This document shows, piece after piece, positions 1,131 to 28,614 of a DNA stretch of 38,758 nucleotides; the stretch's first letter is position 1; the number at the start of each line of letters is the position of its first letter. This DNA is from a virus (taxonomy: Duplodnaviria > Heunggongvirae > Uroviricota > Caudoviricetes). Made by a program: the position numbers and the translations under genes. Where the stretch lies: the IMG/VR virus record IMGVR_UViG_2541047683_000001; one strand, written 5' to 3'. The notes below the pieces were generated by a model that was given only the letters and a program-made list of their open reading frames with translations, had not been told where the DNA came from and ran no database searches.

Positions 1131-3113
1131 TCATTTTGAGTTAAAAAAGCTTATAATTTCTGTCAGCCATGAAGGCGTATATTTTTCATTAATATCAAAA
1201 AGAGCATTGGTGTATTCTTGACAAAATTTAGTTTTATTTCCAGATTCCTCAAAATATCTTTTTATTATTAATTTTTGGCTAGTTGTCAGATCTAATATTC
1301 CAGCTGCAACATTGGACGGTAATGTGTTAATGTTCTCTATAAATGAGAATCTATTATCACCTTTCTTATAAAGTCGATGTAATGTTTTGTGGAAAATAAT
1401 CCCAGATAATACATCTTCAATTTCAGTTGGTGGAGAAACTCTATTGTCGGTGGTTTTTAGTAAGTCAGCATCACTTAAATCATCGCGTAGCAGCAGTCTT
1501 CTGATTCTGACTTGCGATATGCTGTCTGAAGTATCAAATTTATCATACGATTGATCTGTATCCAATAAACAAAAGACTTTTCCTTTTATTGCCGGCTTTC
1601 TGTCTTTTAAAGCTAAGATAAGATATGAGTAAATATCTTTGAGTGCAAATGACCCCCCAACACTTAATACAATTATATTTTTATTTTCTAAATTTTCAAA
1701 TTTAAGATGGGATTCAATGTATAATTTATCTGTACGTCCTTCGCACAATATCCAATTATAATTATTTTGTGATGTAATTGAAGTTATTATGGATTGAACA
1801 AGATCATGATTGCTTTTCACTTCTAAAGTATCTAAATATGAGCCTTTAGATTCTTTAACAAGGGTCGACAATTCATCTCGATAATACTCAAGGTTAAGGC
1901 ATTTTATCAATGCTTGATTTGGAGAAACATAAGTGGCACTACCGCTCATTGCTGCAGGAAGAAAACCATACCAATGAGTAGTACATATGGTTTGAATGCC
2001 TATTTCACTTATTTTTTTAATCTTCTCAAATTGTTTAAAGCAAGATGTCGCATGTAAAGATAACTCTGGTTCATCGACAGCTAATATTGTAGCTTGTTGA
2101 GTTTTTTTGGGATTGTCTTTTAAAAAACCTATGGCTAAATCAAGTAATGCCTTCCTTTTTTCACCAGAACTAAGATTGTGGACAGGTGTATCCCTATTGA
2201 TATTGTCAATATAATGAAGAATTTTGTCACTAAAGTAAGTTTCGATGATTTTAGAAATCATGTGGCGTTGAGTAAATGAATTCTGCCGTTGCGTCGGTCT
2301 TTTGAATTGATACTGCCCATCAAGCTTATATGATAGTTGATCAACAAAGTCATTTAAGTGACGATTTATTTCATTGATGTCACTTTTTTTAATTATCTTA
2401 CTGATTCGTTGTTGTAAGTTTTCTCCAAGTAAAGATTGCAATAACTCACTCTCTATTTTTGAATATTCTGACGTGGTAATTTCTGCAGGCAAATAAATAT
2501 AGTTATAGATATCTTTTATATTATCAAGCAAGCGATTTGATGTGTTCTTGAAATGGTTTTTCTGAGTGTTTGGGGAGCTTCCATCGGGAATTAGTTCATC
2601 AATTCTGGAATGATAATCCTCAATTGATTCAAATATTGACATATAAGATCTAGGTGCTTCATTCGCTTTTTCTTTTATGACTCCTAAAGGAATTAAAAAG
2701 TAATCTTTAGATGAGTAGTTTAACTCTAATATATTGCGATGTGATATAAATTTTTCGGCAATTGTTCGTTGCATTGAATTAAAGTCTTCACTTTCCAATT
2801 GCCATGTAATATCACTAATAACATCAAGAGCTTTATAAGTAAATGAATTAGACCTGAAGCGATCTTTACGTATGAGAAAAATTGGTACAATAAACGGTTC
2901 ACGAGTTTCGAATCCCAGACTCCTGGCATCATTATTTATATCAAGTCTGTTTATATCTGTTCTGTTAAGAACAACATCCAAAGCTTGCAATATTGAACTT
3001 TTTCCAACACCATTTTCACCAATAAGCCAAGATGAATTGTTATTCATAGCGATCGGAATATAATGTTGATTCCTAAAATTTTTGAAGTTTCTTAAAATAA
3101 CACCGATAATCAT
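1131..3113 (-). CDS. OLD-family protein: N-terminal ABC-type ATPase plus C-terminal TOPRIM-like nuclease domain (candidate anti-phage cargo)
   Basis: ORF track 1131..3116; ATG at 3113 with AAGGGA upstream, 19 nt after the repressor stop; Walker A GENGVGKSS; Walker B-like ILAVDEPELSLH; C-terminal ILCEGRTD glutamate motif and CLLDTDQ DxD motif; visibly AT-rich. Confidence 0.7.
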   Translation of the reverse strand: MIIGVILRNFKNFRNQHYIPIAMNNNSSWLIGENGVGKSSILQALDVVLNRTDINRLDINNDARSLGFETREPFIVPIFLIRKDRFRSNSFTYKALDVISDITWQLESEDFNSMQRTIAEKFISHRNILELNYSSKDYFLIPLGVIKEKANEAPRSYMSIFESIEDYHSRIDELIPDGSSPNTQKNHFKNTSNRLLDNIKDIYNYIYLPAEITTSEYSKIESELLQSLLGENLQQRISKIIKKSDINEINRHLNDFVDQLSYKLDGQYQFKRPTQRQNSFTQRHMISKIIETYFSDKILHYIDNINRDTPVHNLSSGEKRKALLDLAIGFLKDNPKKTQQATILAVDEPELSLHATSCFKQFEKIKKISEIGIQTICTTHWYGFLPAAMSGSATYVSPNQALIKCLNLEYYRDELSTLVKESKGSYLDTLEVKSNHDLVQSIITSITSQNNYNWILCEGRTDKLYIESHLKFENLENKNIIVLSVGGSFALKDIYSYLILALKDRKPAIKGKVFCLLDTDQSYDKFDTSDSISQVRIRRLLLRDDLSDADLLKTTDNRVSPPTEIEDVLSGIIFHKTLHRLYKKGDNRFSFIENINTLPSNVAAGILDLTTSQKLIIKRYFEESGNKTKFCQEYTNALFDINEKYTPSWLTEIISFFNSK

Positions 3114-3132
3114 CAATTGTCCCTTCTGAATG

Positions 3133-4068
3133 TTATTTACAAGTCATTATTACTTTGGCGATGATGTTAATTTCATCAATTTTACATTCGATCTTATTAT
3201 TCTTACTTTCTAAAGCAATTCGACTGTTAGGCAATCGAATTAAATTACGTATAGAATAAATACCATCAATGGCTACAAGCCATAAGCCATCGTTTACTTC
3301 TTCAAAATCGCTATTGATTAGGTAAATAACATTTTCAAATTCAATAATTGATATTTTGCTACTATCGTTTGGTAAAAGTGTACGATCAAACATTAAATAT
3401 CCGTTGGTAAATAGTTTACCATTGGTAATATTTTGTTTGGTTAGACAAGTTATTTGTGATTTTGCATCCATAAACATAGGACCTTCAGATTGCGAAAGCC
3501 ACCGCAGCGATGCCCCTGTTTCTAAAGCACACTTGATAATCCAGTCGGAGGGAAAAGTATCCCTCATATAACGATTGGCTAATGTACTTTTTGAGACACC
3601 AAGGTGGTCAGCTAAGGCTTGCCGGGTTTTGAATCCATATGCTTGGACAAGGCGTTCTATTGCTGCCTTACCCCCCTTATTTGGATTTATATTGAACTCA
3701 TTTCGGATGTTTTCTTTTCGAACCGTCTTATCACAATTCGAGATTTTTTTGGTTTCATGTTCATCATTGAGTTCATGTTGGTGTGAAACGCTTTCGTTTA
3801 TGCAATCGGTGCCAAATGCTAACCATTCGACAGTAACACCTGTTTCCATGCTACAAATGACAACCCAGTCTGCGGGGAACGTGTCACGTGCATATCTGTT
3901 TGCCATCGTGCTTTGGGAGATACCAATGTGGTTACAGAATGCTTGGCGGGAAGTGAAGCCGTAAGCCTGCAGAATCCGATCTATGACCTGCTGCCCTCCA
4001 CGATTCTGCATTATTAAAGCCTTCATATCATCGCTAACATGGCGAAATGTGTTTTTGTGTGTTGACAT
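3133..4068 (-). CDS. cI: phage 186 CI-like immunity repressor with tandemly duplicated N-terminal DNA-binding domain
   Basis: Two diverged copies of the module ..QAYGF..RQA...LG.S.ST.ANRY.RDTFP.DW...C..ETG...WL (about aa 25-85 and 128-190), then a C-terminal region; alternative in-frame ATGs at 4026 and 4011, true start uncertain. Confidence 0.8.
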   Translation of the reverse strand: MSTHKNTFRHVSDDMKALIMQNRGGQQVIDRILQAYGFTSRQAFCNHIGISQSTMANRYARDTFPADWVVICSMETGVTVEWLAFGTDCINESVSHQHELNDEHETKKISNCDKTVRKENIRNEFNINPNKGGKAAIERLVQAYGFKTRQALADHLGVSKSTLANRYMRDTFPSDWIIKCALETGASLRWLSQSEGPMFMDAKSQITCLTKQNITNGKLFTNGYLMFDRTLLPNDSSKISIIEFENVIYLINSDFEEVNDGLWLVAIDGIYSIRNLIRLPNSRIALESKNNKIECKIDEINIIAKVIMTCK

Positions 4069-4156
4069 ATCCGATTTGTGATCCTATTCTCCGAAATGTG
4101 AAGTTGAAGTCACGATTAATACCGGCTCACCACAAGCCAATAGGAGATGTTGCATC
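4069..4156. promoter_or_regulatory. immunity switch region between divergent repressor and apl/cox-like genes
   Basis: 88-bp intergenic region between divergently transcribed cI and apl-like genes; contains tandem TGAAGT TGAAGT and AGGAG RBS for apl; promoters/operators not resolved. Confidence 0.4.
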
Positions 4157-5224: not shown

Positions 5225-5319
5225 AGGATGGAACCTTTATACGTGGTGAAAAAGTACAAGAAGTGATGCGTATAAAGACATCACCTCTTGAACGTTATCG
5301 GCGAAATATTTATCGGTAA
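5095..5319 (+). CDS. hypothetical early protein (186 dhr position)
   Basis: 74-aa ORF with GGAGAAAG RBS 8 nt upstream; protein-like composition; overlaps the previous ORF in another frame. Confidence 0.45.
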   Translation: MYAAENEVVYHFRYRGENYSVPEDDLLCCYPSLSGDGSYFFTLKDGTFIRGEKVQEVMRIKTSPLERYRRNIYR

Positions 5320-5558
5320 CGATCTATCAGTGTCTGTATCAGATGAGTGAATTCTTGTTGTTTAACCGAACCTAAAGGAAGTTTGTTTAATTCTTCGCGG
5401 AGGAGCTCAAAAAATGCTGATTGATTTGCTGAGTCAGTTCGAAATAAGGAGTGGATCAGACCTGAAACAAGAATTCGTTGAACAGCAACCTCATCGCGAA
5501 GACTGGAGATCTCGTTTTCAAGTTGCTCTATACGCTCTCTTTCAACCGGGTTCAACAT
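5310..5558 (-). CDS. hypothetical small coiled-coil protein, antisense to the early operon
   Basis: 82-aa ORF with AAGGAA RBS 7 nt upstream of ATG; charged heptad-like sequence (ERIEQLENEISSLRDEVA). Confidence 0.35.
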   Translation of the reverse strand: MLNPVERERIEQLENEISSLRDEVAVQRILVSGLIHSLFRTDSANQSAFFELLREELNKLPLGSVKQQEFTHLIQTLIDRYR

Positions 5559-5982: not shown

Positions 5983-6049
5983 CCAACTAATGAAATTAAT
6001 GGCGTAAACCCGCCGGGTATCCCTTTATCTAAATTCAGGAGAATTGATT

Positions 6050-6283
6050 ATGCGTAATATTGAAACCCTCACGACTAAAACCGGACCGGATGATGCAGGG
6101 CTTAATTTTTTACTGACAGAGGCTCGTCTGGAAGAACGCCGGGCAAGGGCTGAAGCAATGGCAGCTCGCCTTGATAGCCTGGCGTGTCATATCACATCCC
6201 GCCAGCTAAACCACGTCGAAGCGGCAGAACTACTGCGTGTAACTGCTGAAGCAATCCAGAACGAAGCGCAGGAGATCCACTAA
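6050..6283 (+). CDS. hypothetical early protein
   Basis: ATG 6050 with AGGAG upstream; stop overlaps next start (TAATG). Confidence 0.5.
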   Translation: MRNIETLTTKTGPDDAGLNFLLTEARLEERRARAEAMAARLDSLACHITSRQLNHVEAAELLRVTAEAIQNEAQEIH

Positions 6284-6510
6284 TGGCTGATGCAATGGAT
6301 CTCGTACAGCAGCGCGTTGAAGAAGAACGCCAGCGCCATATCCGTGCTGCCCGTGCCAAAACGCCGGGCGTGTCCCGCGTGCTTTGCATTGAGTGTGAAG
6401 CGCCAATTCCGCCAGCACGCCGCCGCGCCATTCCAGGTGTGCAGCTTTGCATTACCTGTCAGGAAATCGCAGAGCTGAAAGGCAAACATTACAACGGAGG
6501 TGCTGTATGA
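6283..6510 (+). CDS. TraR/DksA-family C4 zinc-finger protein
   Basis: CIECEAPIPPARRRAIPGVQLCITCQ four-cysteine motif; translationally coupled to flanking genes. Confidence 0.8.
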   Translation: MADAMDLVQQRVEEERQRHIRAARAKTPGVSRVLCIECEAPIPPARRRAIPGVQLCITCQEIAELKGKHYNGGAV

Positions 6511-7364
6511 GCACCATCCTGAAATGGGCGGGAAATAAAACCGCCATTATGTCCGAACTGAAAAAACACCTTCCTGCTGGCCCGCGACTGGTTGAACCTT
6601 TCGCGGGTTCCTGTGCTGTGATGATGGAGACGGATTACCCCAGCTATCTGGTTGCGGATATTAATCCTGATTTAATCAACCTCTATAAAAAGGTTGCCGC
6701 TGATTGTGAATCGTTTATATCTCGCGCCAGAATTTTATTTGAGAACGCAAACAGGGAGATGGATTATTACAACATAAGGCAGGAGTTTAATTACTCGACT
6801 GAAATTACTGATTTCATGAAAGCGGTATATTTCCTGTATCTCAATCGTCATGGTTACCGTGGGTTATGTCGCTATAACAAGAGCGGGCATTTCAACATTC
6901 CCTACGGGAATTATAAAAATCCGTATTTCCCTGAAAAAGAAATTCGCAAATTTGCAGAAAAAGCCCAACGAGCAACGTTTATCTGCGCCAGCTTTGATGA
7001 AACGCTGGCGATGCTGCAGGTGGGGGATGTGGTGTATTGCGATCCGCCGTATGACGGTACGTTTTCCGGCTATCACACTGATGGTTTCACTGAAGATGAC
7101 CAGTATCACCTGGCATCCGTTCTTGAACATCGGTCATCAGAAGGACATCCGGTCATTGTTTCTAACAGTGATACATCCCTGATCCGTTCGCTGTATCGCA
7201 ATTTTACTCACCACTACATCAAGGCAAAACGCAGCATCGGTGTAGCAGCTGGTGAGAGTAAATCTGCAACAGAAATCATCGCTGTTTCCGGGCCGCGCTG
7301 CTGGGTGGGATTTGATCCTTCGCGTGGCGTGGATAGTTCTGCCGTGTACGGAGTGCGTGCATGA
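6507..7364 (+). CDS. DNA adenine methyltransferase (Dam family, orphan)
   Basis: N-terminal KWAGNK motif and catalytic DPPY ([10 protein letters not shown]); ATG 6507 overlaps TraR stop; GGAGG RBS. Confidence 0.9.
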
Positions 7365-9775
7365 GCCATGCTGATATGAACAACTGCAGCGGCTTTAACG
7401 AGGTCGCCGCAGCATTCTCATGGAACAGCCCGAAAAAGGCCATTAACCCTTATCTGGACCCGGCGGAAGTTGCGCCGGTTTCTGCGCTTTCAAACCTGAT
7501 CACTCTGTACGCTACTGATAACGAGCAGGAACAACTGCGCCGCGAGGCACTGAGTGATCAGGTCTGGGAGCGTTATTTCTTTAATGAATCCCGTGATCCT
7601 GTCCAACGCGAAATGGAGCAGGATAAGCTCATTAGCCGGGCAAAGATGGCGCATGAGCAGCAGCGTTTTAATCCGGACATGGTCATTCTGGCCGACGTCA
7701 ACGCCCAGCCTTCCCATATCAGCAAGCCGCTGATGCAACGTATTGAATATTTCAGCAACCTGGGCAGGCCAAAGGCTTATTCCCGCTATTTGCGTGAGAC
7801 GATTAAGCCATGTCTGGAACGACTGGAGCATGTACGCGACAGCCAGCTATCTGCATCTTTTCGTTTTATGGCAAGCCATGAAGGGCTGGACGGTCTGCTG
7901 ATCCTGCCTGAAATGAGTCAGGATCAGGTGAAACGCCTGTCTACCCTTGTCGCTGCGCATATGAGCATGTGTCTTGATGCCGCTTGTGGTGATTTGTACG
8001 CCTCCGATGATGTTAAGCCAGAAGAAATCCGCAAGACATGGGAAAAGGTGGCTGCAGAAACCCTGCGACTGGATGTCATACCGCCTGCGTTTGAGCAACT
8101 CCGCCGGAAAAGAAACCGCCGCAAACCTGTGCCCTATGAACTCATTCCGGGTTCGCTGGCGCGTATGCTGTGCGCCGACTGGTGGTATCGGAAATTATGG
8201 AAGATGCGTTGCGAATGGCGGGAAGAGCAGTTGCGTGCTGTCTGCCTGGTCAGCAAAAAAGCATCTCCCTATGTCAGCTATGAAGCCGTGATGCATAAAC
8301 GTGAGCAGCGCCGTAAGTCGCTGGAGTTTTTCCGTTCTCATGAACTGGTGAACGAAGACGGCGACACGCTGAACATGGAGGATGTGGTAAACGCCAGCAG
8401 CAGCAACCCGGCGCATCGCCGCAATGAGATGATGGCCTGTGTTAAAGGCCTGGAGCTTATCGCGGAAATGCGTGGTGACTGCGCCGTTTTTTACACTATC
8501 ACCTGTCCGTCACGTTTCCATTCCACGCTAAATAACGGCAGGCCAAACCCGACCTGGACCAACGCGACAGTAAGACAAAGCAGCGATTATCTGGTCGGCA
8601 TGTTTGCTGCATTTCGTAAGGCTATGCACAAAGCCGGGTTGCGCTGGTATGGCGTGCGGGTGGCTGAGCCGCATCATGACGGCACAGTTCACTGGCACCT
8701 GTTGTGTTTCATGCGCAAAAAAGACCGCCGCGCCATTACTGCATTGTTGCGTAAGTTTGCCATCCGTGAAGACCGCGAGGAGCTGGGCAATAACACGGGG
8801 CCACGCTTTAAGTCTGAGCTGATAAACCCGCGCAAAGGAACGCCGACAAGCTACATTGCGAAATATATCAGTAAGAATATTGACGGGCGTGGTCTGGCTG
8901 GCGAGATCAGTAAGGAAACGGGTAAATCCCTGCGTGATAACGCTGAATACGTTAATGCCTGGGCGTCTCTGCATCGTGTTCAGCAATTCCGCTTCTTTGG
9001 CATTCCGGGGCGTCAGGCTTACCGTGAACTGCGATTGCTGGCTGGTCAGGCGGCAAGGCAACAGGGTGACAAAAAAGCAGGTGCGCCGGTACTGGATAAC
9101 CCGCGCCTTGATGCCATCCTGGCTGCTGCTGATGCTGGTTGTTTTGCCACCTACATCATGAAGCAGGGCGGCGTACTGGTTCCCCGCAAATATCACCTCA
9201 TCAGAACCGCTTATGAAATCAACGAAGAGCCAACCGCCTATGGCGATCACGGTATTCGTATTTATGGCATCTGGTCACCCATTGCAGAGGGCAAGATCTG
9301 CACTCATGCAGTGAAGTGGAAAATGGTTCGTAAGGCCGTTGACGTTCAGGAGGCGGCAGCCGACCAGGGCGCTTGCGCCCCTTGGACTCGTGGCAATAAC
9401 TGTCCCCTTGCTGAAAATTTGAACCAACAAGGGAAAGACAAATCAGCTGATGGGGATACCAGGACGGACATTACCCGCATGGATGACAAGGAGTTGCACG
9501 ATTACCTGCACAGTATGAGCAAAAAAGAGCGCCGGGAACTGGCAGCAAGGTTACGCCTTGTGAAACCGAAACGGCGTAAAGACTACAAACAGCGAATTAC
9601 AGATCATCAGCGACAGCAGCTCGTGTATGAACTGAAGTCCAGGGGATTTGATGGCAGCGAGAAAGAGGTCGATTTACTGCTTCGCGGCGGCAGTATTCCA
9701 TCAGGAGCAGGCCTGCGTATCTTCTATCGGAACCAGCGTTTGCAGGAAGATGATAAGTGGCGAAACCTGTATTAA
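7361..9775 (+). CDS. A: replication initiation protein (P2 gpA / 186 RepA-like rolling-circle initiator)
   Basis: 804-aa ORF; HWHLLCF HUH-type motif and YIAKYISKN tyrosine motif; ATGA overlap with dam stop. Confidence 0.9.
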
Positions 9776-10519: not shown

Positions 10520-10945
10520 CTACTTAATTGAGTCCAGTAACAAGTTACAGTTACTCTCATTGTAGAGAGAACGAGCAATTAGTGTTACCTGCTTTCCATT
10601 CATTCCCGGCTTATCCCATAACACAGCTTCTTGCGACGCCACAAATTCAGCATAATCAATTATGCGTTGTTCGTGATCTGGTTCCTCATAGCCAAAGTAT
10701 GAGAGCGCATCGTTGTAAGCGTGGTAAGCTGCTTTCTGTAATATCTTGATATCGGCTGTAGGTACTTGCTCCGTGTAGCTAGGATCTAATTGTGTGCTAC
10801 TGCCATAGAATGCACATGAAAGGTAAGATATTGATTTCTGTTGAGCTTTAGTTCCTTTCTCATAGTTTTTAGCTGTTACCGCCTGAACTGGGACGCTAAC
10901 AAAGCTTGCAACCAGAATTAAAATTAATACGTAAAAGCTTTTCAT
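10520..10945 (-). CDS. hypothetical secreted protein (moron-like cargo)
   Basis: N-terminal Sec signal peptide MKSFYVLILILVASFVSVPVQA; GAGG RBS; visibly AT-rich; opposite strand to neighbours. Confidence 0.65.
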   Translation of the reverse strand: MKSFYVLILILVASFVSVPVQAVTAKNYEKGTKAQQKSISYLSCAFYGSSTQLDPSYTEQVPTADIKILQKAAYHAYNDALSYFGYEEPDHEQRIIDYAEFVASQEAVLWDKPGMNGKQVTLIARSLYNESNCNLLLDSIK

Positions 10946-11218
10946 TTTGACCTCAGCCGAAACGTTAGAGAGACTATCGAAATTTGTAAAACCCGTGGCG
11001 ATTCAGTTTGAGATCCTCCCCCTTACATGATTTTTAATCAAATATATGCTTTTGTAAGCATACCTGTTAACCGAATTATTTATTTTTAGAGATCTTCCGA
11101 CATACTGATTATGCCCGCTGAGGAGTTCACCTTGCGTAAAGTCCGATTCGCTTTACTCGTCTGTGCATGTCTATGCTGCATGAGATTGCATGATCGTTTG
11201 AGGATCGTTTTTGCTAAG

Positions 11219-11243
11219 GCCCGCCAGAACTGGCGGGCTTTTG
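11219..11243 (+). terminator. rho-independent terminator-like hairpin
   Basis: GCCCGCC(agaact)GGCGGGC followed by TTTTG. Confidence 0.5.
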
Positions 11244-11287
11244 CGTAGATCATGCACCTGCATGAAAACCACTACATAAAGCGGGCA

Positions 11288-11306
11288 GGCGTGGCGGGGA
11301 TACGAG
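11288..11306. other. cos: candidate cos cohesive-end site GGCGTGGCGGGGATACGAG
   Basis: First 13 nt match my recollection of the P2/186 19-nt cohesive end (GGCG.GGCGGGGA...); lies between A and Q as expected; recollection of the cos sequence is uncertain. Confidence 0.3.
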
Positions 11307-11382
11307 CGCGCGGTTTGACTGAAAAGTTATGATAAATCACAATTAGGTCTAGTTAGCATTTTTTCTTTTCATGGAGACAACT

Positions 11383-11883
11383 ATGGAACAGGATTATATA
11401 GATCGTGGCTTTGGTTTATGGTCAAAACCTGGTGTCCCGCGTAAGGGATGGGTAAACGTAGGAGTGGAAGACCTAGAAGAAAGTCGAAAAATTTGTGATA
11501 TGTGTGGGAAAACAGAGATAAGGTATGTCCACATAATGTCACATGAGAATTACCCAGATTACTTAGAGGTAGGGTGCATATGCGCTGGTCACTTGGAGAA
11601 TGATTATGATTCTCCAAGAAAACGAGAAAGTGAAATTAAAAGTCGATCAGCCAAAAGAAAAAGATGGTGTAACTTACCTTGGAAAATATCTAAAAAAAAT
11701 CAATTTTACATAAAAAAAGATGGATATAGCATCATCATTCTCGACAAGGGTGATTATTTTATGGGAATGATAGTTGACGAGAGAACGCAAATTAAATATT
11801 GGACTAGAGAATGTAAAGATACTAACGAGGCGAAATTACTTTCATTCGATAGAATAACAGCGCTAATGGCAAGCTCTAAATAA
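11383..11883 (+). CDS. zinc-ribbon-like protein, first gene of a two-gene accessory cassette
   Basis: ATG 11383 with GGAGA upstream (track ORF starts 11371); cysteine cluster CDMCGK...VGCICAGH; lysine/arginine-rich tail; AT-rich. Confidence 0.65.
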   Translation: MEQDYIDRGFGLWSKPGVPRKGWVNVGVEDLEESRKICDMCGKTEIRYVHIMSHENYPDYLEVGCICAGHLENDYDSPRKRESEIKSRSAKRKRWCNLPWKISKKNQFYIKKDGYSIIILDKGDYFMGMIVDERTQIKYWTRECKDTNEAKLLSFDRITALMASSK

Positions 11884-11899
11884 TTTTAGGATTAATTAA

Positions 11900-13030
11900 A
11901 TGTATAATGTTGTATTGGATACAAACATACTCCATGCGGAAGGTATTCACTCACGAGGTATGGCAACTCTTAAAAAGTTAATAGATGAAGGCATTGTTAA
12001 AGTTCATTTGCCTGAACTAGTCGTGAGAGAATTTTCCACGAAAAAAATCACCGTAATAAATGAAGCCTATAATAAGGCGATTAATATTTTAAGAGGCACT
12101 GAACGCGAAGCAAGAGGATCCGAAGAGTCGATACTGCGAGATATTGATGAACTAAAAAACATCATAGACGACAAAGTGAAAGTACTTGATGAAAAAATTA
12201 ATGGTGCAGTTAGGCAATGGATTCAGGATTTTCGAATAAATATTATCCCGTTACATAGTGAATTTACATCAACTGTTTTTGAGAACTATTTTTGTGGCAA
12301 TGGTGTTTTTAAATCGAAAAAATCAAGAGAAGACATACCAGATGCTTTCATTAGCCTCAGTATCGAAAAGTTGCATGATGAAGTCGGTGAATTAATGGTT
12401 GTACTCAAGGATGCGTTGTTTAGAAAGCATTTGTCTGGCTTGGATGGGGTAAAAGTTTATGATAGCTTAGATGAACTTTTCCAATTGCCTAACATTAGAG
12501 CCAGTTTAGAAAATGAAGCCGCATCCTCTTTTTTGACATCAAGTTTATTCAGAACAGCGTTAGAAAACTTCTTACAGCAGAAACCGAATTATTTCGAAGG
12601 ATTCTATCTTGAGATTACTGAGGGAACAGAACTGCTTGCTGATTGGGTTATTGGTGCACATACCGAAATCAACGATTATGGACAAGTAAAGGATATTACA
12701 ATAAGTGATGTAATCAGAAAATCTGAAAGTAACTATTCAGCAAAAATTTCTTTTAAATTGGACTCTAATATCTCTTATGTAACGGATTACGGTGAAGTGC
12801 TTAAAATAGAGAGAGATAAAAACAGAAGCGCGGATTGTTGGAGTATGACAGGTGATGGCATGTGCGATCTTAATGAAAATGTGAATTTAACCTTGGAAGG
12901 TGACTTAAGTATTACCTTTCAAGGTGATTTCAATACATTGAAAAAAGAAGAATCCGAAACTTATTTGAATGAAAATGTTATTGTTATGACAATAAGTTTA
13001 TATGAGGCTATTATAGACAAAGTTCTTTGA
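11900..13030 (+). CDS. PIN-like domain protein, second gene of the cassette
   Basis: 376 aa; N-terminus MYNVVLDTNIL typical of PIN-fold first acidic residue, later EDIPDAF; AGGA RBS; 17 bp after upstream gene; AT-rich. Confidence 0.7.
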   Translation: MYNVVLDTNILHAEGIHSRGMATLKKLIDEGIVKVHLPELVVREFSTKKITVINEAYNKAINILRGTEREARGSEESILRDIDELKNIIDDKVKVLDEKINGAVRQWIQDFRINIIPLHSEFTSTVFENYFCGNGVFKSKKSREDIPDAFISLSIEKLHDEVGELMVVLKDALFRKHLSGLDGVKVYDSLDELFQLPNIRASLENEAASSFLTSSLFRTALENFLQQKPNYFEGFYLEITEGTELLADWVIGAHTEINDYGQVKDITISDVIRKSESNYSAKISFKLDSNISYVTDYGEVLKIERDKNRSADCWSMTGDGMCDLNENVNLTLEGDLSITFQGDFNTLKKEESETYLNENVIVMTISLYEAIIDKVL

Positions 13031-24831: not shown

Positions 24832-26333
24832 GCACAAAATTTTATACCCTGCTGACGGATATTGGCGCGGCGAAACTTGCCAGCGCCGCCGCGCTCGGTG
24901 TGCCGCTAAAAATTACCTATATGGCGGTGGGCGATGGCGGTGGAGTATTGCCAACGCCGGACGCAAAGCAGACGGCACTGGTAAATGAGAAACGCCGGGC
25001 TGCGCTGAATATGCTTTATATCGACCCGCAGAACAGCAGCCAGATTATTGCCGAACAGGTGATCCCTGAAAACGAGGGCGGTTGGTGGATACGTGAAGTG
25101 GGCTTGTTTGATGAGTCCGGGGCATTGATTGCTGTGGGCAACTGCCCGGAAAGCTATAAGCCGCAACTGGCTGAAGGTAGCGGGCGCACTCAGACCGTGC
25201 GCATGGTGCTGATTACCAGCAGCACGGACAATATCACCCTGAAAATCGACCCTGCTGTAGTGCTGGCAACCCGCAAGTATGTGGATGACAAGGCACTGGA
25301 GCTGAAGGTGTACGCGGATGATCAGATGGCAAAACATCTTGCCGCACCGGACCCGCATTCACAGTACGCGCCAAAAGCCAGCCCGACATTTACCGGAACC
25401 CCCAAAGCGCCAACGCCAGCGGCGGGGAATAATACCACGCAGGTTGCGACCACTGCGTTTGTACAGGCGGCACTGACGGCCCTTATTAATGGTGCGCCAG
25501 CCACGCTGGACACGCTGAAAGAAATAGCCGCAGCCATTAACAATGATCCGAATTTCAGTACCACCATTAACAATGCGCTGGCACTTAAAGCACCGTTGTC
25601 GAGTCCGGCACTCACCGGAACGCCAACAGCCCCCACGGCGGCGCAGTCGGTCAACAATACACAGATTGCCACTACGGCTTTTGTGAAATCGGCGATTGCA
25701 GGAATGGTGGGTTCTGCACCTGCTGCACTGGATACACTGAACGAACTGGCGGCGGCACTGGGGAATGATCCGAACTTTGCCACGACAATGCTTAATGCGC
25801 TGGCAGGTAAACAACCGCTGGACAATACGCTGACTCATTTGAGTGGAAAGGATGTAGCAGGTCTTCTCGCATACCTTGGTTTGGGAGAAGGTGCTCCAGC
25901 TATTGGCGTTCCGTTCTTCTGGCCCTCCGCTGCAATGCCAAATTCTGTCATCGACAGCTGGTCCGGTATGGTGTTTTTGAAGTTCAACGGCGCGAAATTC
26001 TCTGCCACTGATTATCCTGTGCTGGCGAAAGTGTTTCCTTCGCTGGTATTACCTGAAGCCCGCGGTGATTTCATTCGTATCTGGGATGACGGGCGAGGTG
26101 CAGACGGTGGTCGCGAATTATTAAGCTGGCAGGCAGCTACAAACTTTTCTCAGTTTGCCGGGAATATAGGCGAAGGTGCGGGACACGCAATTAACTTTCA
26201 TGATGGCATCGCCGGAAATCAGCCAGGATTTTCACGATTTAATTTCACCAGTAACTCTGTGGGTGATGGTGTGAATTTTGTTGCTGTCAGACCGCGAAAT
26301 ATTGCATTTAACTTTCTGGTGAGGGCTAAATAA
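24828..26333 (+). CDS. H: tail fibre protein (P2 gpH-like)
   Basis: Conserved fibre N-terminus MSTKFYTLLTDIGAAKLA; internal fibre repeats; followed by tail fibre assembly gene. Confidence 0.9.
   Translation: MSTKFYTLLTDIGAAKLASAAALGVPLKITYMAVGDGGGVLPTPDAKQTALVNEKRRAALNMLYIDPQNSSQIIAEQVIPENEGGWWIREVGLFDESGALIAVGNCPESYKPQLAEGSGRTQTVRMVLITSSTDNITLKIDPAVVLATRKYVDDKALELKVYADDQMAKHLAAPDPHSQYAPKASPTFTGTPKAPTPAAGNNTTQVATTAFVQAALTALINGAPATLDTLKEIAAAINNDPNFSTTINNALALKAPLSSPALTGTPTAPTAAQSVNNTQIATTAFVKSAIAGMVGSAPAALDTLNELAAALGNDPNFATTMLNALAGKQPLDNTLTHLSGKDVAGLLAYLGLGEGAPAIGVPFFWPSAAMPNSVIDSWSGMVFLKFNGAKFSATDYPVLAKVFPSLVLPEARGDFIRIWDDGRGADGGRELLSWQAATNFSQFAGNIGEGAGHAINFHDGIAGNQPGFSRFNFTSNSVGDGVNFVAVRPRNIAFNFLVRAK
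25377..25820 (+). repeat. two tandem 222-bp (74-aa) repeats inside tail fibre gene H
   Basis: Protein repeats aa 184-257 and 258-331 share the pattern P.FTGTP.AP....N.TQ.ATTAFV..A.......AP..LDTL.E.AAA..NDPNF.TT..NALA.K.PL. Confidence 0.6.
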
Positions 26334-26926
26334 TGAAACCTGTTTTTGATGAAAATGGGCTGGCTACAGTGCCGGGCGATATGCGTTGTTTTTATTATGA
26401 TGCTGAAACATCTGAGTATACGGGCTGGTCTGATGAATATATTAATACTGGCGTAAGTATGCCCGCCTGTTCCACTGGTATTGACCCTGGCGAAAACATT
26501 CCGGGAAAAGTAGCAGTATTTACGGGTAAGGGATGGAGCCATGAAGAAGACCATCGCAATGAGACCGTTTACTCAACTGAAAATGGCGCAGCTGTTACAG
26601 TGGATTATATCGGTGCCATCAAAGACGGTTATGTCACGCTTTCACCGTTAACGCCATACGATAAATGGGATGGTGAGAAATGGGTGACGGATACCGAGGC
26701 ACAGCATAGCGCCGCAGTAGAAGCGGCAGAAGCACAGCGCCAGTCGCTGATTGATGCTGCAATGGCTTCCATCAGTCTGATTCAACTGAAATTACAGGCC
26801 GGACGGAAGTTGACGCAGGCAGAAACAACCCGACTTAACGCCGTGCTGGATTACATTGACGCGGTGGCGGCAACAGATACCAGCACCGCGCCGGATGTCA
26901 TCTGGCCTGAACTGCCGGAGGCGTAG
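26333..26926 (+). CDS. G: tail fibre assembly protein (P2 gpG / Tfa-like)
   Basis: 197 aa with Tfa-type C-terminus VDTSTAPDVIWPELP; TAATG coupling with H. Confidence 0.85.
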   Translation: MKPVFDENGLATVPGDMRCFYYDAETSEYTGWSDEYINTGVSMPACSTGIDPGENIPGKVAVFTGKGWSHEEDHRNETVYSTENGAAVTVDYIGAIKDGYVTLSPLTPYDKWDGEKWVTDTEAQHSAAVEAAEAQRQSLIDAAMASISLIQLKLQAGRKLTQAETTRLNAVLDYIDAVAATDTSTAPDVIWPELPEA

Positions 26927-27125
26927 GCCATTCAATATCTGGTGCACTGGAAGTATCGACCAGTTCCAGTGCGTCCAGGTAATCCAGCCACAAATTATAT
27001 TGTGCCAGTTCCTCACCTTTCAGACAACCAATAGCTGCTTTGCCAGGCCATTGCTTACTGTTTATAAACTCATTAGCCCAGTCTATTCGCAGCTGTTTCT
27101 CTGCTTCGGCAGCAATAACAATCTC
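26898..27125 (-). pseudogene. inverted 3' fragment of a second tail fibre assembly gene (remnant of invertible fibre segment)
   Basis: Minus-strand ORF ends LWLDYLDALELVDTSSAPDIEWPTPP (Tfa C-terminus), tail-to-tail with G and overlapping it by about 29 nt; N-terminal part replaced by AT-rich sequence from about 27126. Confidence 0.6.
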
Positions 27126-27169
27126 ATATAAATGAAACTGATAAGTTTTTATTAAAAGTAAGATGGATA

Positions 27170-27192
27170 CCACCATTTAATATAAATGGTGG
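27170..27192 (-). terminator. hairpin immediately downstream of the 290-aa cargo gene
   Basis: CCACCATTT(aatat)AAATGGTGG perfect 9-bp stem right after stop at 27200 on the minus strand, followed by a T-rich tract. Confidence 0.4.
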
Positions 27193-27199
27193 TTCACAG

Positions 27200-28072
27200 T
27201 TAACTAGCGTGTAATAAGTTGAACAGGTTTTTAGTTACTTCGTTTTTAGTACTAAAAAACATATCTTTAAGGTCAGGTAATGCAAAGAGAGCATTTGGGG
27301 CATTCGGTACAACAATAGGAGGTTCATATCCGTTGTCATACATTTTCTTTAAAGCGGCTACTATTTTTTTCTGATTTCGATTGAATTCATTCATGTCAAT
27401 AAAAATTTCTCCAGATAGTGTCCCGTCATCTTCACGTAGTATCGCTGGTTTGACACGACATATCTGATCCATTTCTCCAGTAGAAAAACCGGCAATCGCT
27501 GCATTAAATAACAAAGATGAAGTAGCCCATTTTTCATATAGTTTTTTGATAGCCATGCTTCTGATTTTTTTATCGTTGATATATCCAATGCCACTGGCCA
27601 AAACTTCGGTTAATGGATTTTCCCCGCGAGTTACTCCAGACCAATAGTTGTGCATCCAGGGCGCATTTTGCTCAAGTGGAGAGCCGAGATAATCAGTGAT
27701 CCACTCTGAATCCACCTCTGTAAAGTTCAAACCATGAAAATCAATTTCTGCAATAGTATTTTTATAGTTTTGATTTAAACTCCAACGGTCGATTGCTATT
27801 TCAGCCATTTCTTTTGTTTTGAATAGGTATATTCCGGTTAGGCGGGAAACCTTATCTCTGAAATTGTCTGAGCGAACCTTTTCAAGAGCTAACTCATTTT
27901 GTAATTTTTCATTGTGATTATCTGATAAGTATTTCCTTACTAGATTGTAGAACCAAATAGATACTCCAAACTCACTTTTATAGCAAATTGATTCAATTCT
28001 TCCTATTGCAACCTCCCAGGCAACAATTGGATTATTTAAATTTAAGTAAGCATATAGTTTTCTCTGTTCCAT
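27200..28072 (-). CDS. hypothetical 290-aa protein, AT-rich cargo at the tail fibre/invertase locus (candidate defence or exclusion gene)
   Basis: Track ORF 27200..28171; ATG 28072 with AAGGAAA RBS (upstream extension is AT-rich and RBS-less); globular-looking, not fibre-like; no motif I recognise. Confidence 0.6.
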   Translation of the reverse strand: MEQRKLYAYLNLNNPIVAWEVAIGRIESICYKSEFGVSIWFYNLVRKYLSDNHNEKLQNELALEKVRSDNFRDKVSRLTGIYLFKTKEMAEIAIDRWSLNQNYKNTIAEIDFHGLNFTEVDSEWITDYLGSPLEQNAPWMHNYWSGVTRGENPLTEVLASGIGYINDKKIRSMAIKKLYEKWATSSLLFNAAIAGFSTGEMDQICRVKPAILREDDGTLSGEIFIDMNEFNRNQKKIVAALKKMYDNGYEPPIVVPNAPNALFALPDLKDMFFSTKNEVTKNLFNLLHAS

Positions 28073-28209
28073 TTTTATTTTCCTTATAGATGCTATGAAG
28101 GTTATTATTACATAAATGTTCGATAAATATTTTAAAGTTTTAACTATGTTTCGGTGGCAATAAATATACATTACAAGTGAAATTTATCAAGATAACAAAA
28201 GGATAGCTA

Positions 28210-28614
28210 ATGCTAATAGGCTATGTACTCGTGTCAACAAATGACCAGAACACCGAGCTGTAACTCTTTATGCTGACAGAAGAGTTGCGCCAGCATGGTG
28301 TGAATTTTAGAAGCCTGACTGACAGTATTGATACCAGTACCCCAATGGGCCGTTTCTTTTTTCATGTCACGGGTGCCCTGGCTGAAATGGAACGCGAACT
28401 GATAGTTGAACGTACCAGGGCGGGGCTTGCTGCAGCTCGCGCCAAAGGCAGAGTAGGTGGACGCCGTCCTAAGTTGACCACCGAACAGTGGGCACAGATT
28501 GGGCGTTTACTCGAGGCCGGAGAATCAAGACAGCGTATTGCACTGATTTTTGATGTGGGTGTTTCCACAATTTATAGAAAATTTCCGCCAAATAAGAGCA
28601 ATGAATCCCCCTGA
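28210..28614 (+). pseudogene. serine DNA invertase (Pin/Gin/Hin family) inactivated by in-frame internal deletion with stop codon
   Basis: N-terminus MLIGYVLVSTNDQNTEL then TAA at 28261, continuing in frame with EELRQHGVNFRSLTDSIDTSTPMGRFFFHVTGALAEMERELI...GRRPKLT (C-terminal two-thirds of an invertase); about 65 catalytic-domain codons missing; R-to-L change in GYVRVS motif. Confidence 0.8.

Follow-up and report, generated by a model that had tools for sequence, protein, structure and literature searches.

The locus studied here can be compared with the early operons of the P2-family phages P2 and 186. Upstream of the replication gene A, the P2 record lists orf80 (DUF2732), orf81, orf82 (a DksA-like zinc finger) and orf83, and the 186 record lists orf80 (DUF2732), orf81 (a DksA-like zinc finger), orf82, orf83 and orf84. 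The zinc-finger protein of P2 has been purified: Orf82 occupies the DksA site in the secondary channel of E. coli RNA polymerase, in competition with DksA, complements a dksA deletion and inhibits rrnB P1 in vitro (IC50 250 nM; PMC9239242). Its lower activity was tentatively put down to the absence of A8 from its DxxDxA motif (PMC9239242). As to the end of the operon segment, the 186 record states that translation of A appears to need translation to the end of the preceding gene, orf84, and that a terminator located early in A, tM1, acts when A is untranslated.

Phage-borne orphan methylases of GATC type are likewise described. HP1, K139, P1 (Dmt), T4 and VT2 all carry one, in lineages and at genome positions other than those of the gene reported below, and some such enzymes have been shown to be active (PMC7556043; for K139, PMC8537503). 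Their role, in the words of a review-type statement, 'is still not well understood' (PMC7556043). Within the P2 family, the CFT073 prophage phi-b0847 has been classed as a P2-like phage of Fels-2 type, and its description mentions a Dam methylase (PMC3573123). The Fels-2/RE-2010-type prophages of Salmonella (RE2010), Klebsiella (KP12 and 4LV2017), E. coli CFT073 (phi-b0847) and E. coli C4 share the succession DUF2732, zinc finger, Dam and A. For the Dam of our locus or a close homologue of the Fels-2/RE-2010 type we found genome descriptions only and no published experiment.

The window analyzed here, a stretch of 38,758 nucleotides of viral DNA, contains a 186/Fels-2-type prophage of the P2 family sitting in a segment of E. 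coli chromosome. Between positions 6000 and 7500 it is 100% identical to E. coli strain C4; compared with the Dam loci of Fels-2/RE-2010-type prophages in general, only accessory genes elsewhere differ. In strain C4 the integrase gene opens the prophage directly after ybjJ and rcdA, and in the window the other prophage end adjoins genes with products matching Asp-Al_Ex/TrkA_C and YbjM. The insertion site is thus the ybjJ/rcdA-ybjL region of the E. coli chromosome. We take b0847 to be ybjL, in which case CFT073 phi-b0847 would occupy the same chromosomal site.

The annotated order in strain C4 is integrase, OLD-like ATPase, CI repressor, the divergent early operon and DinI. The early operon itself consists of an apl-like gene, cII, fil, one small gene in reverse orientation, DUF5347, DUF2732, the zinc finger, Dam and A. 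In the window the last four of these genes lie on the forward strand. The DUF2732 gene (6050..6283; PF10809, E = 3e-29), equivalent to orf80 of both P2 and 186, is followed by a TraR/DksA-type C4 zinc-finger gene (6283..6510; 75 aa), the orthologue of P2 orf82 and 186 orf81. Next come an orphan Dam-family N6-adenine DNA methyltransferase gene (6507..7364; 285 aa) and the replication gene A, which encodes the rolling-circle nicking protein (7361..9775; 804 aa; Phage_GPA, E = 5e-127). We compared this arrangement with the P2 and 186 records, with four other genera and with 79 loci of other species, and found the synteny of the P2 family (Peduoviridae): repressor, divergent early promoter, DUF2732, zinc finger, a variable slot and A.

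Our best explanation of the whole is a Fels-2-type prophage that encodes an RNA-polymerase-binding zinc finger and a GATC-specific early orphan Dam acting as a methylation supplement. We regard this as probable when taken as a unit. Its parts differ in firmness: the gene identities are held with high confidence, and the biological role of the Dam, which we read from its sequence and setting, is proposed tentatively, as something short of an even chance.

A putative pR-like early promoter is found at 4062..4090 on the forward strand (TTGACA, a 17-nt spacer and TATTCT; 10/12 consensus matches). It is the sole strong forward promoter-like site upstream of the operon and occupies the position of 186 pR, just to the right of the cI start. 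Within the operon we saw no excess of internal promoter-like sites. With a single strong promoter-like site at the pR position and no such excess, expression of the zinc finger, Dam and A would have to await the lifting of CI repression. The placement of the methylase in the early operon, proposed in a preliminary description of this DNA, is borne out by its location between the zinc-finger gene and gene A in a layout like that of 186.

The zinc-finger protein matches PF01258 (zf-dskA_traR) with 43.5 bits (cutoff 24.9, E = 3e-11) and TIGR02419, the TraR subfamily of phage and plasmid zinc fingers, with 65.8 bits (cutoff 59.7). It is 68% identical to 186 Orf81, 47% to P2 Orf82 and 39% to F-plasmid TraR, and the nearest solved structures are those of YbiI and F-plasmid TraR. 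When the four proteins are aligned, C35, C38, C56 and C59 are invariant, as are D3 and D6. These family models and the four cysteines agree with its initial reading as a TraR/DksA-type C4 zinc finger at 6283-6510. The protein resembles P2 Orf82, 186 Orf81 and F-plasmid TraR in its length of 75 aa, its C4 zinc finger and its N-terminal D3/D6, and the two phage proteins also in its operon position. The N-terminal DxxDxA motif, on which activity depends, retains D3 and D6, with V in place of A at position 8, where P2 Orf82 has I and both 186 Orf81 and TraR have A.

Orthology with P2 Orf82 suggests that the mechanism of the zinc finger is likely already known. The protein is the TraR homologue of the phage and, by the same orthology, would attach to host RNA polymerase in its secondary channel and so redirect transcription of the host in the lytic phase. 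The preliminary description had held that neither this gene nor the methylase belongs to canonical P2. The statement is wrong for the zinc finger, which is present in the same position after the DUF2732 gene as P2 orf82 and 186 orf81; P2 is Dam-less and has a DUF5405 gene in the slot. By its sequence and its position the zinc-finger gene classifies as a core P2 gene.

The Dam protein matches PF02086 (MethyltransfD12) over the entire profile (1-253/253) with 259 bits (cutoff 22, E = 7e-77), and TIGR00571 (dam) with 323 bits (cutoff 115). Its score against NF008152, the equivalog model of housekeeping Dam, is 289.7 bits and stays below the cutoff of 441, which points to a paralogous phage lineage and not to housekeeping Dam. 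KWAGNK (residues 6-11, positions 6522-6539), EPFAGS (residues 30-35) and DPPY (residues 179-182, positions 7041-7052) align with the corresponding EcoDam motifs. Taken with the family models, they confirm the enzyme as a Dam-family N6-adenine methyltransferase, recognized early on from KWAGNK and DPPY. Matches in PHROG and PADLOC, besides those in Pfam and NCBIfam, bear out the identity and integrity of these genes, at levels far above those that chance would give. Alignment of the Dam protein with E. coli Dam gives 46% identity over residues 3-263 (E = 9e-84) and shows no rearrangement. P1 Dmt is 35.5% identical to our protein, and T4 Dam matches it with E = 3e-18. With EcoDam (PDB 2G1P) it shares the D12-class alpha-group fold, KWAG-K, an FxGxG-like EPFAGS, DPPY, a recognition hairpin and orphan status. 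Unlike EcoDam, it is phage-borne and under a repressor-controlled lytic promoter, and it has a 22-aa C-terminal tail, which carries the ribosome-binding site of gene A.

The residues through which EcoDam reads GATC allow a prediction of specificity. In EcoDam, R124 reads the fourth base pair, L122 and P134 the third, and K9 and Y138 the first, while Y119 intercalates and N120 gives a base hydrogen bond (PMC4417163). Six of these seven contact residues are kept in our protein: K9, Y119, L122, R124, P134 and Y138 correspond to K6, Y117, L120, R122, P132 and Y136. The residues of EcoDam that contact phosphates align unchanged. The seventh, N120, is replaced by R118; R is also present in a Klebsiella phage homologue, and N in the other two Dam lineages. 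Together with R137, which is replaced by N, this change lies in or beside the recognition hairpin, where flank preference or fidelity might shift.

These substitutions, of which N120 to R is lineage-specific, could be taken to mean that the enzyme methylates a different motif from GATC, or has relaxed specificity, and that it is a true anti-restriction methylase giving protection beyond that of host Dam. The score below the host-Dam equivalog cutoff (290 versus 441 bits) and the existence of phage adenine methylases with relaxed specificity (PMC7556043) would fit such a reading. We nevertheless consider it very unlikely, given that only one of the seven GATC-reading residues and none of the phosphate contacts is changed, and that the overall identity is 46% with no rearrangement. 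Moreover, all the phage adenine methylases of relaxed specificity that we know of belong to families other than that of Dam. The degree of identity and the near-unchanged recognition hairpin make a GATC target, identical to that of host Dam, likely, and we predict GATC specificity from the sequence with high confidence.

We next considered whether the methylase has a restriction partner. Searches with Pfam, PADLOC and NCBIfam recognized no restriction endonuclease family among the accessory ORFs of the prophage, four of which match no family. The best PADLOC model for Dam is oMTase ('orphan methyltransferase'), with 369 bits, and its neighbours are the zinc-finger gene and gene A. The early view that Dam lacks a cognate restriction gene is therefore upheld within these searches. 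The phage genome has 135 GATC sites, compared with 151 expected from base composition, and so exhibits no avoidance of the motif.

The genes of this operon segment overlap one another. The ATG of the zinc-finger gene at 6283 has one base in common with the TAA of the DUF2732 gene (6281-6283). At the junction of zinc finger and Dam (6496..6510, forward strand), a Shine-Dalgarno (SD) sequence GGAGG at 6496-6500 precedes an ATGA overlap at 6507-6510, formed by the Dam ATG at 6507 and the zinc-finger TGA at 6508-6510. The junction of Dam and A (7350..7364, forward strand) has the SD sequence GGAG at 7350-7353 and an ATGA overlap at 7361-7364, with the A ATG at 7361 and the Dam TGA at 7362-7364. 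For each start the SD sequence lies inside the preceding gene, that of the zinc finger being AGGAG at 6270-6274. The two ATGA overlaps that had been described, with the zinc-finger gene upstream and gene A downstream, are thus present.

From these overlaps we conclude that zinc finger, Dam and A are probably translationally coupled; the ATGA overlaps would tie translation of Dam, and then of gene A, to that of the preceding gene. The dependence of A on orf84 in the 186 record makes a real coupling from Dam to A plausible here. A predicted RNA hairpin at the Dam start places the SD sequence in the stem and the AUG in the loop (z = -2.7; 3/200 shuffled sequences fold equally well), and is suggestive only as a coupling signal. 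An RNA structure concealing the gene A start was rejected, the fold there being no better than that of shuffled sequence (z = -1.3).

Successive genes in this stretch of the operon overlap at their starts and stops by 1 to 11 nt in P2, in 186 and in further relatives, independently of which genes are present, and this identifies the overlaps as general operon architecture and not as the mark of a special Dam/zinc-finger unit. To compare gene content we surveyed the surroundings of gene A at 80 loci, each in the genome of a different species; 79 of them have an A ORF and were counted. Upstream ORFs were typed by BLASTP against reference genes, and Dam was scored within 4 kb upstream of A on the same strand. 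A Dam-family gene is found in 33 of the 79 P2-family loci (by best reference match, 16 have the type found here, 12 that of phiT5282H and 5 that of ev129), and a zinc finger is detectable in 48.

The two genes occur independently. Both are found in 16 loci, Dam only in 17, the zinc finger only in 32 and neither in 14, giving an odds ratio of 0.41, and a positive association between them was rejected. The special link that the preliminary description had implied is accordingly not retained. One could still argue from the adjacency with its ATGA overlap, and from the 13/79 loci in which Dam directly follows the zinc finger, that the pair is a dedicated two-gene functional unit, for instance a regulator plus its enzyme. 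This seems to us highly improbable: besides the lack of positive association, the zinc finger is kept in the Dam-less P2 and 186 with other genes after it, 17 loci have Dam and no detectable zinc finger, and P2 Orf82 acts alone on RNA polymerase in vitro (PMC9239242).

The slot between the zinc finger and gene A is filled differently from phage to phage. P2 has a DUF5405 gene there (orf83), and 186 an exonuclease-like gene, a DUF5405 gene and a PAPS-reductase-like gene. Klebsiella phage ST15-OXA48phi14.1 carries a Dam 72% identical to ours with the same overlaps, Escherichia phage ev129 carries Dam plus Dcm, and Enterobacter phage phiT5282H carries Dam plus a small ORF. The comparison of these sequences classes the Dam gene as optional cargo of the variable slot, and since more than half of the related phages are without Dam, it is dispensable. 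The slot has repeatedly captured DNA-modifying genes, namely Dam in three lineages, Dcm and the PAPS-reductase-like gene. All captured slot genes end on the A start, so translation of these genes and of the replication initiator is probably linked.

This position suggests a further reading, in which selection acts mainly on having an ORF that ends at the A start and delivers ribosomes to it, the methylase activity being incidental. The gene that ends on the A start varies (Dam, PAPS-reductase-like, DUF5405, Dcm or small ORFs), and the overlap with that start is maintained at 4 to 11 nt in P2, 186 and other annotated relatives. The 186 record, with its apparent requirement for orf84 translation and the tM1 terminator early in A, fits as well. 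Conversely, in 19 loci the zinc finger lies directly before A, and no extra gene is needed. The Dam gene has also kept its full set of catalytic motifs and is intact in three separate lineages and in over 1200 E. coli genomes, which argues for selection on the enzyme itself. We consider ribosome delivery rather unlikely as the main basis of selection; it is compatible with our preferred explanation, in which the enzyme supplements host methylation.

For that role we propose the following scheme, in which the product of the Dam gene is most likely a functional orphan adenine methyltransferase specific for GATC. Synthesis of the enzyme would depend on firing of the CI-repressed early promoter and would thus follow only upon infection or induction. 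It would supplement limiting host Dam, such that the 135 GATC sites of the fast-replicating phage genome could be fully methylated before packaging. Full methylation would shield progeny DNA from restriction enzymes that are blocked by GATC methylation and would keep host MutH and SeqA from acting on under-methylated phage DNA. Host Dam has been reported to be limiting for high-copy DNA, and phage Dam to act against restriction (bioRxiv 10.1101/2020.06.22.160242). Protection of incoming DNA, at first suggested for orphan methylases of phage early operons, has to be abandoned: the enzyme is synthesized after entry, so the incoming genome cannot be protected and only replicating and progeny DNA can be modified.

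Enterobacterial hosts already methylate GATC, so any benefit of a second Dam is hypothetical; the effect of a phage-borne second GATC methylase on a P2-type phage whose host has Dam is a point of modest value. The Dam of P1 has a documented packaging role, and we know of none for Dam in P2-type phages. Action of Dam at the replication origin was considered and rejected: the ori-like sequence, placed in gene A by homology with P2 and 186, lies at about 9370-9400, with 9295 and 9602 as the closest GATC positions and none at the nick region. We also considered whether M.EcoMIV, a prophage Dam homologue of E. coli EC958, can be linked to this gene. The P2-like prophage that we found in EC958, between serS and dmsA, is without Dam, so M.EcoMIV is probably on another prophage. 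Its expression data (it is reported as barely transcribed in the lysogen; PMC4659465) are for this reason not transferable to our locus.

The early promoter itself contains a GATC. It lies at 4080..4083 in the spacer, one base before the -10 element, and abuts the middle one of three CGAWWTGTG direct repeats (at 4043, 4072 and 4092), which from their sequence are presumed to be CI operators. The arrangement TTGAC-N13-GATC-N-TAnnnT is found at the equivalent place in 17/24 relatives with the same repressor type, in which the rest of the spacer and the repeats diverge; a scan of 1.43 Mb gives 20 forward-strand occurrences and none on the reverse strand. A precedent is offered by the P2-like Vibrio phage K139, which has its own adenine methylase: under-methylated GATC sites at its cI operator have been reported and ascribed to CI binding (PMC8537503).

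It can be imagined from these features that phage Dam methylates the promoter GATC, alters CI binding or promoter strength and so commits the phage to lysis. The site would then be an epigenetic switch element in this group of P2-family phages, shielded as long as CI is bound. Once the promoter is free it would be methylated by host Dam, with reinforcement from phage Dam where there is one, which would make a return to repression difficult, and phage Dam would be part of a commitment device. If true, phage Dam would be more than an anti-restriction function and part of the lysis-lysogeny commitment, and the conserved promoter GATC is a simple, testable link between Dam methylation and a phage switch. 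We consider this reading unlikely, however. The GATC is kept in 9/13 relatives with phage Dam and in 8/11 without, so it is not tied to the Dam gene; an association between the two was rejected, and host Dam suffices if methylation matters. Counted by switch type, the promoter GATC is found in 0/9 loci of the 186 type and in 1/12 of the P2 C-type, and in 0/10 of the P2 C-type loci that do have Dam.

The combination of genes described here is already known, as an annotated and widespread orphan phage Dam together with a biochemically studied zinc-finger orthologue. Dam-family genes occur in 478 phage records in all. The 1.5-kb module itself is found in 58 phage records, mostly of Klebsiella and Salmonella and including RE2010, at 96-97% nucleotide identity. 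It is also present in 1245 of 5426 complete E. coli genomes, mostly at 95-99% identity, where a 'DNA adenine methylase' is annotated beside a 'TraR/DksA family transcriptional regulator' and a 'replication endonuclease'.

The early promoter pR carries a GATC site at 4080-4083, which occupies a fixed position in the spacer, one base ahead of the -10 element. This GATC adjoins the middle copy of three CGAWWTGTG direct repeats (4043-4100), presumed to be the operators of the CI repressor. An equivalent arrangement is found at the early promoter of L004, an annotated P2-family relative (1071-1099), and at 18 of the gene-A loci from other species (L010-L089). Among the 24 relatives with the same repressor type, 17 have the GATC at this fixed position in spacers that are otherwise divergent, and it is retained both with and without a phage Dam. 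The GATC-bearing pR may act as a promoter or operator that responds to Dam.

The repressor gene itself (3133-4068, - strand) encodes a protein of 311 aa, compared with 192 aa in 186. The Phage_CI_repr helix-turn-helix domain matches this protein twice, suggesting from domain searches that its N-terminal DNA-binding domain is duplicated. Within the early operon, an 82-aa gene belonging to phrog_26925, a family of unknown function, lies reversed between fil and the DUF5347 gene (5310-5558, - strand), with a terminator-like hairpin nearby on the minus strand (5290-5257). Transcripts of the early operon must read through this gene in antisense.

The slot ahead of gene A seems to gather DNA-modification genes. 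In some P2-family phages, Dam and Dcm-type cytosine methylase genes stand in tandem directly 5' of gene A, and in others Dam is followed by a PAPS-reductase-like gene before gene A; examples are Escherichia phage ev129 (L005, 3495-5353) and the gene-A loci L040 and L061. In the window Dam, the catalytic DPPY motif is encoded by GAT CCG CCG TAT (7041-7052), which includes a GATC, placing the presumed target of the enzyme inside its own active-site coding sequence, probably by chance through codon usage.

Between DinI and the portal gene, the variable region contains a 170-aa ORF without family followed by a gene for a 376-aa PIN_12-domain protein (11371-13030, + strand), which may form a defence or toxin pair. 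Beside them lies a reverse feature (10520-10945, - strand), and the divergent intergenic stretch upstream of the 170-aa ORF (10946-11370) contains five GATC in 240 bp (11012-11248).

A stretch of 1.7 kb (25767-27466) is free of GATC and extends into the start of an AT-rich island (27050-28250, 29-38% GC versus about 50% overall), which is reversed in orientation between tail-fibre genes and the tail-sheath gene. Its 323-aa protein (27200-28171, - strand) has no match in Pfam, NCBIfam or PADLOC, and by Pfam it is no acyltransferase. In the CFT073 prophage phi-b0847 (PMC3573123), the AT-rich virulence gene neaT occupies the same 'moron position 2'.

Finally, between the integrase and CI genes (1131-3116, - strand) lies the gene for an ATPase of 661 aa whose TOPRIM domain is OLD-like. 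Its top PADLOC matches are AriA and Old, and it is probably an anti-phage defence gene carried by the prophage, analogous to P2 old but at a different position.
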